Assembly: GCF_021057185.1 (NCBI RefSeq)
Contig: NZ_CP054059.1
Location: 1,050,001 to 1,082,000 of the forward strand
DNA: 32,000 nt
Direction: 5' to 3'
DNA from: Candidatus Absconditicoccus praedator
Lineage (GTDB): Bacteria; Patescibacteriota; Gracilibacteria; Absconditabacterales; Absconditicoccaceae
A program made the position numbers and the translations under genes. A model generated the notes under the pieces. It saw nothing but the letters and a program-made list of their open reading frames with translations. It was not told the origin of the DNA and ran no database searches. Of the stretch, positions 1 to 6,033 are shown one piece after another. Every line of letters begins with the position of its first letter. Within the stretch, counting starts at the first letter, position 1.

Positions 1-2
1 AA

Positions 3-2594
3 AAGATGAAACATTCTATTACTCTTAATAGATTTTTGTTTCATATTTCTATGTTTATAAATCCAAAGATACTAAATGACTACAAAAGAAATCTTAATGA
101 ATTATTTTATATAATATCAAACGATGAAACTGTGTATAACCTTTTTATGAAGCAGTCAAAAATATTACTTAATATATTAAATGAAGAAGTTGGTGATAAT
201 GAAACTCTTTTTAATAGATCTCAATTTCCAGATAGAAAAAATATGATTTTTTTAGAATGATTATATTATTGAATCCTAAACATTAAAGAAGCTTTAGAAT
301 ATGTTTTTTATATCAAAAGCACAGATAAGGCTTATTGTGAATACTATGAGCAACACAAAGATAATAAGCTAATTACAAATATAATAAATGAAATAGATTC
401 TTTTTTAGAAGAAAATGAAGTTAGCTTGGATAAAGATAGTAATGAATATTATGAGCTTATTTTGCATTTTTATATGCTTAGAATACCAAATAAAAGCACA
501 TCATCTAAATATAAACATATAATACTTAAAAATCTTCAAAAAAAAATTGGTATAAGTTGAATTAATCAAAATTTTTCAGGGCAAAATGTAGGCAGTAAAT
601 TTCAGAAAAACTTGTACAAAACTTGAAGCAAGATATGAAATAAACAAAGAAGAGATACAAATATTACTAACTTTTTAAATGATTTGAAAATTTTAGGAAG
701 AAAACAACAATATTATAAAAAACTATCTCAAAATCTAAAACAAAATGATTGTGATGGTCTTTTGATTGAGGAGTTTTTGGATATATTTTTTGATTCATTA
801 TTTGAAAGCAATGTTGATCTGGATTTTGTGGGTGTTCTTTATATGGCTTTTAAAGAGAAAAAAATATCCAATGATGATAATATCAGGATAAGCTCTATAT
901 ATAAAAAATATAAACAGTGAAAAATAGAAAACACTTATGATCTTCAAAACTTTTTAGGTTTTCTTTTGTTAGCAAGTAAAAATCCTGAACTTCAGTCTTT
1001 TTCAGAAGAAAACAGGGACTACTTGTTTTCTGAGTACAGTGCTGAATTTATTGAGGAAAATGTTAACTTTTTCTTGAAGTTCAAAGACAATGTATGTTTA
1101 ATAACTCAAATATTATGAGCTGATTTTGTACAAAAAAATATTGAAAATATTCAGTGATTTAAAAATATTTCTTCTTTGTTAAAAAAAGTAGATATAGATT
1201 TAATTGGAAATAAAAATTTGTATTATTTATTGTATGTAATTTTTTGGGAAGAACAAAACCAAGTTAGCAAATATGTTGAAGAATTTAGAGAATACAAACA
1301 AAATTTAATAAGACTTAAATCACAGGAAGATTTATTTTTACAGGAGACACAAAATCCTATAGATATTGGTTTTTGGGAGTTTTTGCAAACTGATCTTGAT
1401 TATGAAAACTTACTTAATCTTGAATTTGCTATACAAGAACTAGTAGAACTAAACAATAAAATTAAAAATTTTTTATCAGATAAGCAATTTTCTAATGAAA
1501 TAACTCATAGAAGAAAAATATATGATATATCAGTAGAAAGGCTTATTTATTATGTATATTTTTGTGAAAATTTTGACTGCAGTGAAATAAGTGAAAGAAC
1601 TCTTCAAAATATATTTTTATTGCAGGAAGATAAATATCATACAGTTGTAAATAATATATTAAGTTTGGCAAACAATACAGCATTAAAAAAGCTAAATCAT
1701 CTAAGTAAAAATGAAATTTTATATATTTTTTATCATAATTTTGCAGATATATATCATTTATTAGATAATGACTTTGAAAATATACAAGATATCCTAAGTT
1801 GATTAAATAAAACTAGCTTTGTGGAAAAATATCAAAAAGAAATAGAAGAAATATTAGATTCTACAAATATAGATGTTACATTAATTTTTGAATATTTTGA
1901 AAATCTAGAAGAGGAAATAGATTGGTTAGAGAGGCTATTAAAATTGTTTAAGTTCTTAAAGAAAAATAATTTATTGCCAATAATAGAAAGTAGTTTTCCA
2001 GGTTGAATTGAAGGATTTGTACAACAAGTTCTTGATAATGTAAATTCACCTGAGCAACTATCATATCTAAATTCAAATAATTATGATTTAATATTTATTT
2101 CAAACTATCTAGATATAGAATTTTTACTCCAAACAGTATATAGTTCAGCAAATTTATTAATTTTATTAAACAGATTTCAGTCATCACAACTAGATCAATT
2201 AATAGAAAAGTTTAGTGCTGAACAAATAGATCAAACAAGTGTTCACAAGAATATAAAAGAATTCTCTGAAATTTTGATAGATTTTCTTTTGGGGAAAACA
2301 AAAATCCAAGAAATTGAAAAATACAAAACACCAAGCTCTAAAGAAAATCAAACTAAGAGACCAAAAACAAATATATTAAGTTATTGGTCCCCCCAAATGG
2401 GTTCAAGAGAGGTTGAAGCTTTATTGAAGAGATTTGGATTTCTAAAAGATAGACAATGATCCACAAGTCACAGAATATTTAGACATCCAGGCGGAAAATG
2501 AGCTATTGTTGTTCCAATGGGTAAAGATTCATTACCTGTGGGAACATTGAGAAATATACTTAAAACTGCTGCTTTAATTTTGGAAGAAGGTTAG
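3..2594 (+). CDS. Large (>=863 aa) mostly helical hypothetical protein with a C-terminal HicA-like toxin domain. The frame is open to the window edge, so the 5' end may lie upstream (first ATG at 6).
   Basis: Standard-code fragments 6-260, 684-920, 1176-1802, 1821-2006 and 2274-2459 share one frame and are joined only by TGA codons. There is no TAA/TAG until TAG 2592-2594. I saw no Walker or other NTPase motif in the N-terminal ~790 aa. Confidence 0.75.
2397..2594 (+). other. HicA-like (YcfA/HicA_toxin family) domain at the C-terminus of the large protein
   Basis: MGSREVEALLKRFGFLKDRQ-G-STSHRIFRHPGGKGAIVVPMGKDSLPVGTLRNILKTAAL matches the HicA pattern (GF..rq.GSH..f.HP......vP.h...l..GTl..Ilk.agl). 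The conserved Gly before the catalytic His is written as TGA (2457-2459). Confidence 0.7.
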
Positions 2595-2660: not shown

Positions 2661-2689
2661 TTGACAAATGAGCTTGATTTAGATATTAT
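2661..2689 (+). promoter_or_regulatory. Sigma70-type promoter candidate for the pilT operon
   Basis: TTGACA (2661-2666), a 17-nt spacer, then TATTAT (2684-2689), 33 nt upstream of the pilT ATG. Confidence 0.5.
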
Positions 2690-2722
2690 TAATATATTGA
2701 TTTAAATAAAAATAAAAAATTT

Positions 2723-3826
2723 ATGCCTTCAAATAGTATTTATTGAAAACTTGAACAAATATTGGTTAATAACATATCTGATATACATATTTTAGAAGAT
2801 GATTTTATTTATGTTAGAAACTCTTCTTGAAAAATAAAAAAATTAGATTGATACATTTTATATCAAGAAGAGATTTACTGATTTTTACATGATATATTGC
2901 CCACAAATAGTGTCGATTTGCTATTAGATGGACATGAAGTTGATGCTTCTCATACTTTTTCTTGAAGTAGATTTAGAATCAATGCATACAAAGATAACAA
3001 TTGAATTAGAATTGCTTTAAGAAAAATATCCTCTATGCCTCCTAGTATGGAAGAGATTTGATTTTCTACTGAATTTAAGAATCAATTAATTAACAAGGAA
3101 AAGTGATTGATTTTAGTTACTTGACCAACTTGATCTTGAAAATCAACAACATTAGCATCAATTATAGAAGCAATTAATAATGAACTTAACTCTCATATAA
3201 TTACTTTAGAAGATCCAATAGAATTTTTATATGAAAGTAAGAATTCTTTGATAACACAAAGAGAAATATGAAAAGATACAAAATCTTGGAAGTGAGCGAT
3301 AAAATACAGTTTGAGACAAGATCCAGATGTGGTTTTAGTTTGAGAAATGAGAGATCTTGATACAATATCTTCTGTAATGACCTTAGTAGAAACATGACAT
3401 TTAGTTTTGTCATCTTTGCATACAACTGATGCTATTCAAACAATTAATCGTATAGTTGATTCTTTTCCTGCTAATCAGCAGCAACAAGTAGCAGCTCAAT
3501 TAAGTTTCTCTTTGGATACTATTATTAGCCAAAGACTTTTTACAAATAAAACTAATAATTGAAGAGTTCCAGTAAGGGAGGTATTAATAAATAATAATGC
3601 TGTAGCAAATAATATTAGAGAAAGAAAGTTAGCACAATTAATATGAATCATGGAAACTTCTACTAAATATTGAATGAGAACTATGGATCAGTCTCTTGCA
3701 GAAGCTGTAGCTAGTGGACAAATAGACTTAAATGTTGCATTATCAAAAGTTAAAAATATAGATAATTTTAAATCTTTAGTTTCATACCATAAAAATGGAA
3801 GTTCAAAATTTAGGCCAATTGATTAA
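2723..3826 (+). CDS. pilT: Type IV pilus retraction ATPase PilT
   Basis: The frame is continuous from ATG 2723 to TAA 3824-3826 with TGA=Gly (about 18 in-frame TGA by hand count). Walker A GPTGSGKST is written TGA-CCA-ACT-TGA-TCT-TGA-AAA-TCA-ACA at 3122-3148. It also has LRQDPDVVLVGEMRD and GHLVLSSLHT motifs. Length 367 aa. Confidence 0.92.
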
Positions 3827-4571
3827 GAAATACTGACAAAAAAAGTTTTTAGAATCTTGAAAGATGTTATTTGATTGCTCAAAGGAAGATTGTAATATTT
3901 ACTATATTCAATCTTGACATGTTTTACTTGAGAAAAACTCAATTCCAGTAGTTTCTCTTTGAAGTTGAGAAATTTTATGAGAAAAAAGCTTTTTAGAATT
4001 AGTTCCCAAACTTTTAGATGCAAAAGTTTCTGAAGATTTAGAATATTATTTTTTAACTAAGGAAAAATTTGATCAACTGAATGAAGATGCTAAGGTGTCT
4101 ATTTTATCTTGAATTTGATCTTTTTTAACTAATAGAATTTATAAATTAAATGATGTTCTAACAAAGATTAATTATTATAACAGTAATATTATACTGTCTG
4201 ATATTGATGATGAAAAATTAAAAAATATATTTAAAAATGATATAACAATAGAAGAGATACTTGTTTTAAAAAAAATAAATTGAAATGAAAATTTTCATAA
4301 ACTTTATTGAAATATAGTGTTTTGAGATGATGTTGAAAAACTTTTGTATACTATCTCAAGTCAAGATAATAAAATTAAAGTTTGAAAAAATTATCTAATA
4401 TTTGATTCATGAAGTTATGTTTTCTTATTTTTTGGTAAGATTATAAGTGAGAAGTATATTCTAGAAAATTCTATATTATATAGTACATGAATGTTTGATT
4501 ATTTATGATTTAAATTAGAGGAAAAACAAAATAATGAATTTTTAGAAAGTTCAGATAGTTTTGATGAATAA
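3795..4571 (+). CDS. Cyclic-nucleotide-binding (Crp-like beta-roll) domain protein
   Basis: Runs from the first ATG after TAG 3777-3779 to TAA 4569-4571 and overlaps the pilT 3' end by 32 nt. The N-terminal FLESGKMLFDCSKEDCNIYYIQSGHVLLEKNSIPVVSLGSGEILGEKSFL resembles the cNMP-binding fold signature. Length 258 aa. Confidence 0.6.
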
Positions 4572-6033
4572 TAATGTTTTATTAGTATTAGGTGGAATAT
4601 TTGTTTTTTTGTTTTTATGGATTTTTGCTATTGTTTATTTTTTGGTATGATGATCTCAGCCATCAGCTGATGTTTTACAAGCTGAAAATGAAAACTTATA
4701 TGAAGACAACAATGATGAAATTAATAACAATGATCAAGATGAAGATATTGATGATGAAAAAGAAAATACTAAAGATGAAAATGAAGTTGATGGTGAAAAT
4801 GATGAAAGTAAAGATGCTGATAATAATAAAATTAAAAAAGAAGAAGATAATTATGAACAAAAATATGAGGATTCAAAGATAGTTGTTCATATACCTGATT
4901 TTTTTTATGAAAGAAGATGATTTGAAGTTTTAAAAAGAAGATTTCAAAGGGAATACTCTATAAAAGTAGATTATGAGAAATATAAAGATATGAATAATTA
5001 TCAAAATGAGTTATTATTGAGTCTTGCAAGAGAAGAGGATTGATACGATGTTTTTATGATCCCTTCTACTTGGAAGAAAAGTTTTGATCAGTTTGCTTAT
5101 AATATTGAGTTTGATTCATCATTGGATCAACATTTTCATTATCAATTTTCAGAAATTAATGATATTGATTCAAATACTTTTTTGCCTTTTGCTATTGATC
5201 CTCTTGTTACATTTGTTAGAGATAATAGTTTTTGGAGTTGAAAAAATTCTATAAGTGTATCAGATATTCAAGAATATATTTTAATGGAAGGGGACTCTAG
5301 TTGATTGAATATGCCAGTAATGTTTTGAGTTTCTCCAGGTGATATCTCTTATATGCAAAACAATAATACTTTTTATGAAAACTATTTAGATGTTATATAT
5401 AGTTATGTAAAGCTTTCTTGGATGGAAGATGATATAGATTATATAGAATTTTTATTGGATTTATGATCAGATTGAAATTATAAATCCTGGGATCCTAGAA
5501 AATTTATTTCTATCGTAAGAAGACTTTCTCAAGAAAACGAAAAATGTAGAAAATTTCCTGATATTTGTGTAAAGTTTTCTTCTTTTGTGGATATATCTTT
5601 TGGTTATATGTCTGATTTGGATAAAAAAAATAAATATTTTGATGATGGTTTAACAGATGATTGATTTGAAGTTTTTAACTTTCCTATTAAATCAGATGAA
5701 TATCTTACTAGATCTTGGTGATTTATGATAAATAAAAATTCAAATAAAAACAAGCAGTCAGTTTTGTTTTTGGATAAATTTATGCAAGAAGTGTCTTGAT
5801 GAAATACAAGTTTTTGGAGTAGTACAATTTCTTCTTTCAATAGTGTAATATCCAGTCAAAGATCAAAAAATATTTTTGAAAATATAATTTGAAATCTAAC
5901 AGATTTTAATATAAAGACTTGAACAGTATCAAAATATGAAAATTTTATTAAGGATACGAAATTTTTACAAGCATTAAATTGAGAATATAGCATATCTGGA
6001 TTTTTTGATGAACTTGATAAGTATATTTATTAA
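4564..6033 (+). CDS. Membrane-anchored extracytoplasmic protein with an acidic linker and weak resemblance to family-1 solute-binding proteins
   Basis: Runs from ATG 4564 (8-nt overlap with the upstream gene) to TAA 6031-6033, 489 aa, and I checked every codon for TAA/TAG. It has an N-terminal anchor VLLVLGGIFVFLFLWIFAIVYFLV and a ~65-aa D/E/N/K linker. It then carries DGYDVFMIPSTW and LPFAIDPLVTFVRDNSFW, which look like SBP motifs. Confidence 0.6.

Follow-up and report, generated by a model that had tools for sequence, protein, structure and literature searches.

A HicA domain at the end of a 930-residue protein without a HicB partner in Candidatus Absconditicoccus praedator

HicA is the textbook toxin of two-gene toxin-antitoxin systems. 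In Candidatus Absconditicoccus praedator (Patescibacteriota, Gracilibacteria, Absconditabacterales), whose complete genome is a single contig of 1,129,696 bp with 27.9% G+C, a stretch of 32,000 nucleotides (contig positions 1050001-1082000, called here the window) was analysed, and the gene lying across its upstream edge was found to code for a protein of 930 residues, in which a HicA domain is preceded by an N-terminal region of about 860 aa. The same layout is present in a second genus, in Candidatus Vampirococcus lugosii, and no HicB antitoxin was found in either genome by the searches described below. Joined to an orphan region of very large size, a HicA domain persists without any antitoxin in two minimal genomes, of about 1.1-1.3 Mb. 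The fusion is almost certainly real and conserved. As for its function, we tentatively favour, by analogy with catalogued fusions, a self-inhibited one-protein toxin of the kind known as class 13, in which a real, conserved HicA module would be held inactive by the rest of its own chain. Coordinates are window positions (1 = contig position 1050001) unless marked as contig positions or by an L-number.

Under genetic code table 25, in which TGA is read as glycine, one frame runs without a stop from position 3 to the stop codon TAG at 2592-2594; under table 11, the same region (1-2600) falls into open reading frames (ORFs) of 208 aa at most. The reading of TGA as glycine was confirmed on neighbouring genes, where this codon encodes three of the three Walker A glycines of PilT and one of the three of FtsH. 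With the ORF's own base composition, the chance of 930 codons free of TAA and TAG is 4e-34; the longest open run among 200 shuffles of the ORF is 133 codons, and its other two frames contain 79 and 67 stops. The true start is an ATG at contig position 1049802 (window -198; L002:9802), outside the window and 198 nt upstream of its edge, the ORF opening right behind a TAG at contig 1049799-1049801. A promoter-like site, TTGACA-17-TAATAT (L002:9716-9744), ends about 60 nt upstream of this ATG. The window therefore holds positions 1-2594 (+ strand) of a 930-codon gene, and since the gene starts 198 nt before the window, the full protein (P0002) has 930 residues rather than about 860. An earlier sequence-only reading, made from the letters of the window, had described a long single protein running in frame and without a stop into a complete HicA module, which is borne out under table 25; its lengths, about 790 aa for the helical part and about 860 aa in total, were underestimated, the gene being cut by the window edge.

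The HicA domain, predicted to have an RNase fold resembling the double-stranded RNA-binding domain, occupies positions 2397-2591 (+ strand; residues 866-930). Its identity, proposed from the letters alone, was upheld by the Pfam profile HicA_toxin (PF07927), which matches the full protein at an E-value of 6.9e-15 (55.3 bits, profile positions 1-56 of 58), far over the curated cut-off of 27 bits, and the isolated domain at 8e-17 (61.5 bits). PHROG 353, annotated 'toxin', also matches the HicA part (2e-13), and the solved HicAs 1WHZ, 4C26, 6G26 and 9SVK align with the domain at 2.8e-8 to 9e-4, the best being 1WHZ (2.8e-8). The secondary structure given by AlphaFold2 for this part is helix-strand-strand-helix, vs. 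alpha-beta-beta-beta-alpha in the family fold, with a predicted local distance difference test score (pLDDT) below 50.

Alignments to the solved HicAs place the catalytic motif at T888-S889-H890 (2463-2471, + strand), a derived form of GSH in which the catalytic histidine is retained: in 1WHZ and 9SVK, the histidine of the motif falls opposite His890, and the V. lugosii orthologue has it too. A further alignment combined the domain and this orthologue with 17 free-standing HicAs from genomes of the same class. It contains xGSH in all 17 free-standing proteins vs. [G/N]STSH in both fused ones, where the motif glycine has become threonine, with a one-residue insertion. The letters G(TGA)-S-T-S-H and the ATG at 2397 are in the sequence as the sequence-only reading had them, so that its 'GS..H motif' stands as far as the letters and the histidine are concerned, but the form is derived, the canonical glycine of GSH being a threonine beside an insertion. 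His890 and the residues R-Q...H-R-I...H-P flanking it are common to both fused proteins. Concerning the 'VPxH' region, its second histidine is missing, VPMGK being found instead, and the closest free HicAs carry the same change. Catalytic competence of the derived domain is plausible, not assured.

When residues 1-860 were compared by phmmer with 1.84 billion representative proteins, one relative was returned, from V. lugosii (4e-5). This orthologue (P0005, WP_213348771.1) has 918 residues and is automatically annotated at NCBI as 'type II toxin-antitoxin system HicA family toxin', a label that is misleading for a protein of 918-930 aa. The two proteins, P0002 and P0005, align collinearly over their whole length from residue 1, both beginning with M-G-L (27% identity, BLASTP 9e-44), and the last domain of P0005 is likewise a HicA (Pfam E-value 5.9e-11, 42.7 bits). 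Identity is 40% in the HicA part, the best conserved segment, and 16-36% per block of 50 residues along the N-terminal region, a fast divergence compared with the 62% identity of FtsH.

The two parts of the protein are joined by a linker (2325-2396, + strand; residues 842-865) with little predicted structure. The linker sequence KYKTPSSKENQTKRPKTN is present as described by the earlier reading, and the segment aligns gap-free with V. lugosii, residues S846, E848, Q850, N857, I858, L859 and Y861 being common to both proteins. An N-I-L-x-Y just ahead of HicA is kept at the junction of the V. lugosii orthologue, which has Leu where the host protein has Met866. Two nucleotides before the ATG at 2397 lies a run of six C (C6; 2389-2394, + strand), on the length of which the fused frame depends: with one C more or one C less, the long protein would end 15-18 codons later (880 or 883 aa) and be followed by a separate, overlapping hicA. 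Runs of at least six C or G number 13 in the 1.13 Mb, several of them at about 726-728 kb, and among those examined only the C6 before hicA sets a reading frame. An independent Logan assembly of SRR15691272 contains the same 930-codon gene with the same C6, and its DNA is identical over the comparable 12.2 kb. An assembly error at this run was rejected as an explanation, the fusion being conserved in V. lugosii. Since P0005 matches along its full length, carries HicA at its own C-terminus and lacks a junction Met, the fusion appears to be ancestral to both proteins and maintained by selection. The sequence-only reading had noted that the HicA module keeps its 'own Met' (2397), which is not a conserved feature: a separate 66-aa product from this internal start is unlikely, since V. 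lugosii has Leu there and a search for promoter-like sites ahead of 2397 gave no good one.

Concerning the antitoxin, the Pfam profiles PF15919 and PF05534 gave nothing at E<=1 in the complete host genome, and PF15919 gave nothing in that of V. lugosii. With the HicB neighbour of a closely related HicA as query, neither genome gave a match, in a search run without a positive control. HicA domains number exactly one per genome in the host and in V. lugosii. At the free-standing hicA loci of the class, a HicB-like gene, mostly of 60-100 aa and often overlapping hicA, lies directly upstream in 19 of 20 cases. A hidden Markov model (HMM) was built from these 19 HicBs and run unfiltered on all 19,766 stop-to-stop frames of the host genome, the giant ORF included; its best match reached only an E-value of 0.56, and no HicB-like remnant was detected by the HicB HMM inside the giant protein. 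The absence of a nearby HicB, as read from the letters of the window, is therefore true of the window and, with both Pfam and the custom model, of the whole complete genome. Given that a small HicB stands directly upstream of 19 of the 20 free-standing hicA genes, the N-terminal region appears to occupy the position held by the antitoxin gene in the nearest relatives of the fused HicA. By alignment, the fused domain groups with HicAs of the class 2 type, and it appears to derive from a hicBA pair of that class. The protein itself is no ordinary type II HicAB or HicBA member, having no adjacent HicB and not being a small free-standing toxin (about 60-100 aa).

The orphan N-terminal region covers residues 1 to about 841 (positions 1-2324, + strand, with residues 67-841 inside the window) and is predicted to be all-helical, soluble and non-repetitive. 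No match was found for it in Pfam, NCBIfam, PADLOC or PHROGs, the only PHROGs match of the protein being in its HicA part, and comparison with the PDB, by sequence and by a two-sequence profile, gave nothing at E<=10. Its maximum hydropathy over 19 residues (KD19) is 1.21, so that no transmembrane helix is expected. A signal-like start, transmembrane segments, internal repeats (including those of RHS or filamentous type), Walker A and HExxH motifs were all looked for and none was found in this region; no SMC or AAA family of Pfam matched at E<=0.1, and the host genome contains no paralogue of it. The AlphaFold2 models reached a pLDDT of 37.6 from the single sequence and 35.8 from the two-sequence alignment; they give no usable fold, with helices throughout the region, mostly short at this low confidence and unlike long coiled-coil arms. 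The sequence-only reading had seen here a long, apparently all-helical sequence with no NTPase or other recognisable motif. The Pfam and motif scans agree with it, and the structure prediction to which it had looked for a fold supplied low-confidence helices (pLDDT 36-38) and no fold.

As a whole, 141 genomes of the order, representing one family and 43 genera, were searched with a profile of the N-terminal region, and the gene was found in two of them, the host and V. lugosii; as a control, the profile recovers the 25%-identical orthologue when given the V. lugosii genome. No copy turned up in G011, G019 or G041, which by FtsH identity to the host (69, 64 and 63%, respectively) are all closer than V. 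lugosii (62%), nor in G225, which is as near as V. lugosii (62%), relatedness ranked by this one marker protein being a rough guide only. Word-indexed searches of proteins, whether queried with the complete sequence, with the two-sequence profile or with the HicA part among long proteins, returned the query itself only; two metagenome scans gave no relative, and a scan of genome contigs had V. lugosii as its sole return. Searches of 40 relatives and of 400 genomes belonging to the class yielded only free-standing HicAs.

The fusion, whose conservation and synteny the sequence-only reading had proposed to check, is kept in V. lugosii, but at a different locus. In the host, the gene is flanked upstream by a flippase gene and a 183-aa orphan ORF and downstream by an operon of pilT, a cyclic nucleotide monophosphate (cNMP)-binding protein gene and a 490-aa gene, with FtsH among the neighbours. 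In V. lugosii, an ORF of 83-108 aa lies upstream, with a tRNA-Ser about 1 kb upstream; on the downstream side are a convergent ORF of 260 aa and the genes for a sigma factor and for a VirD4-like ATPase. These V. lugosii flanks are adjacent in the host genome, at 781-782 kb, with no gene remnant between them, and for this reason the gene appears to behave as a clean single-gene insertion or deletion, that is, as an accessory, movable gene. Its N-terminal region is AT-richer than the surroundings in both genomes (23.6 vs. 27.9% G+C in the host, 15.4 vs. 20.9% in V. lugosii).

Fusions of HicA are not unprecedented. Gerdes 2024 (PMC10865869) distinguishes 14 genetic contexts of HicA, of which classes 11-14 are fused, and the present gene is a single-gene variant of a layout catalogued there, with an orphan N-terminal region. 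The statement of the sequence-only reading that no such family had been described was accordingly too strong. The available part of the table of that paper contains no entry from Absconditabacteria, the V. lugosii protein being absent from it as well, and the paper on the V. lugosii genome makes no mention of HicA. Class 13 (exemplar WP_067334119.1) consists of monocistronic genes for proteins of 340-440 aa, with a helical part at the N-terminus and HicA at the C-terminus (PMC10865869). The present protein resembles it in being monocistronic, in its helical N-terminal region (by low-confidence models) followed by a C-terminal HicA, in the absence of HicB and in the logic of cis-regulation proposed for it. 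It differs in its size, 930 aa vs. 340-440 aa, its N-terminal region being more than twice as long, and in that this region has no detectable homology (V. lugosii only by phmmer, class 13 having been compared by its description). Class 14 of the same paper comprises the SMC-HicA fusions (exemplar WP_223300692.1); the likeness lies in the large size, the mostly helical make-up and the position of HicA as the last domain, whereas the present protein has no SMC/ABC-type head, no P-loop match and no Walker A. As for class 2, hicBA with a small HicB (PMC10865869), its members from the same bacterial class (e.g. at L041 and L004) share the order of partner, then HicA, and the D-R-Q and V-P-M-G-K motifs, and the fused HicA is 50% identical to that of L041; in the fused gene, however, HicB is missing, an orphan region of 860 aa is fused in the place of the partner, and GSH has become [G/N]STSH.

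The reading of the protein as a single-chain toxin or defence effector, already suggested by the sequence-only reading, is still the leading one, and it is held here tentatively. In an ancestor with the reversed 'hicB-hicA' arrangement, hicA would have lost its small antitoxin gene and come to form the C-terminal domain of a helical protein of 860 residues. The N-terminal region would neutralise the RNase domain in cis and would probably also be a sensor, perhaps for defence. A trigger, such as stress, phage infection or the entry of some other invader, would then free the HicA domain from the inactive protein, and the freed HicA would cut or bind RNA, so that growth stops. The experimentally studied fused toxin-antitoxin proteins CapRel(SJ46) and EzeT served Gerdes as the analogy for proposing that fused HicAs are regulated in cis (PMC10865869), and a HicA-domain system has been validated against phage in E. 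coli (PMC13092281, 2026). In CapRel(SJ46) and EzeT, too, one polypeptide carries a second domain thought to hold the toxin domain inactive, which in CapRel also senses a phage protein (PMC10865869). Their toxin folds (toxSAS and kinase) are unrelated to that of HicA, and their regulatory domains are far smaller than the N-terminal region of the present protein. If inhibition in cis were true, the N-terminal region would be the largest HicA 'sensor' known, and a conflict system would have been kept in highly reduced Candidate Phyla Radiation (CPR) genomes, which were thought to be poor in such systems.

Several observations weigh against this self-inhibited toxin. Its N-terminal region has no identifiable sensor or inhibitor fold, AlphaFold2 having failed on it. 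Neither of the two loci is recognisable as a defence island, and PADLOC returned nothing meaningful. The gene has two members only, so that conservation statistics are weak. Finally, because the motif glycine has changed to threonine beside an insertion, the HicA domain may be attenuated or non-catalytic. A glycine substitution at this site of the GSH motif inactivates the HicA of B. pseudomallei. If the domain were attenuated or non-catalytic, no cis-antitoxin would be required.

This last point leads to an alternative that we consider unlikely, in which the HicA fold is a non-toxic RNA-binding module, or a weakly active RNA-processing one, carried on a large scaffold, and in which an antitoxin is unneeded. 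The change from GSH to TSH with its insertion, present in both orthologues as against GSH in 17 of the 17 free relatives, would fit such a module, as would the lack of a HicB in the complete genome and the housekeeping genes that surround the host gene; the missing second histidine (VPMGK) points the same way, though the closest free HicAs are alike in this. Against it, His890 and its flanking residues have been kept in spite of an overall identity of 27%, with 40% in the HicA part, and a housekeeping role fits poorly with a gene present in two of 141 genomes and at different loci.

An effector directed at prey is similarly doubtful. In that case, the N-terminal region would deliver or target the protein and the HicA RNase would shut down translation in the photosynthetic prey during feeding, an immunity gene being unneeded since the toxin acts outside its producer. 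V. lugosii, one of the only two carriers among the 141 genomes, is a described epibiotic predator, and the host, a relative in the same family, may be the order's other cultured predator; a long protein with its toxin domain at the very C-terminus follows the logic of polymorphic toxins, and no antitoxin or immunity gene was found. Also, the fusion gene of V. lugosii is separated by two genes' distance from that of a VirD4-like coupling ATPase, and the pilT operon is next to the gene in the host. However, the pilT operon holds its position in relatives devoid of the gene, so that the adjacency looks accidental, and the VirD4-sigma block of the host is not beside the gene. The protein has no signal peptide, transmembrane segment or known trafficking domain that could be found, nor repeats of RHS or filamentous type, and it differs from polymorphic or secreted toxins in lacking both a trafficking domain or signal peptide and a downstream immunity gene. 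Moreover, two related genomes amount to one evolutionary observation and not to a correlation with predation. Were the protein such an effector, it would offer a first entry, at the molecular level, to the disabling of prey by these epibionts. A bolder form of the idea, improbable in our view, makes it a predation weapon specific to the 'vampire' Absconditabacteria: a cytoplasmic pro-toxin, the N-terminal region of which would mediate transfer through the attachment apparatus related to pili or to type IV secretion systems, and the HicA of which would degrade the mRNA of the prey. It would then be the first inter-bacterial effector among HicAs, and the CPR epibionts would have in it their first candidate for a killing factor.

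Two separate products, with HicA made on its own from the ATG at 2397 or by slippage at the C6 and the long protein being an unrelated gene or a trans-acting antitoxin, are very improbable. In their favour, the ATG stands exactly at the domain start, the rare C6 lies 2 nt upstream with overlapping separate genes at one C more or less, and the host genome has no Shine-Dalgarno sites, which makes internal starts compatible with the sequence, but V. lugosii has one frame with neither a junction Met nor dependence on a C-run, the C6 is unchanged in the Logan assembly, a promoter-like site is lacking ahead of 2397 and the junction N-I-L-x-Y is conserved as protein.

Downstream of the fusion gene, a promoter-like site, TTGACA-17-TATTAT (11/12; 2661-2689, + strand), belongs to the pilT operon and not to the HicA gene, in agreement with the earlier remark that the downstream pilT has its own promoter. 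The pilT gene (2723-3826) and the cNMP-binding and 490-aa genes overlap end to end behind this single near-consensus site (2661-6033). The three-gene set recurs in four relatives, and a fifth relative has pilT alone. Since the gene upstream of the set is different in each relative, the set is an independent unit.

One of these upstream genes, coding for a 972-aa protein in G003 (L037:1487-4405), was considered as a homologue of the fusion and rejected, being a hybrid histidine kinase (domains PAS/GAF, HisKA, HATPase and receiver); so large a sensor kinase is unexpected in a genome of about 1.6 Mb in this group. Next to it, a 436-aa protein (L037:161-1471) has lectin-domain matches of the concanavalin/Laminin_G_3 and neurotoxin-receptor-binding-like types.

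On the upstream side of the host locus, the 183-aa orphan ORF (L002:8997-9548, - strand), which has no family match, shows a 20-nt convergent overlap with the 3' end of the flippase gene (L002:7472-9016, + strand), about 450-1000 nt upstream of the window. The VirD4/TraG-like coupling ATPase, of about 807 aa, is accompanied by a sigma-70 factor both in V. lugosii (L060:8956-11379) and in the host (contig 778136-780610), with 65% identity; the host has a second, more distant copy at contig 503775-506900. The 90%-identity cluster of P0002 includes a 52-aa protein from ENA (P0003) without visible similarity, probably a clustering artefact.

A fusion of the opposite type was also encountered, in another member of the class (L066:366-2171; G223:C55, to the contig end), where a protein of at least 602 aa carries HicA at its N-terminus (Pfam 1.2e-18) and has no confident domain in its long C-terminal part. 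Upstream of this G223 fusion lies a gene for a normal 87-aa HicB (L052:1518-1778; Pfam 4.7e-14).

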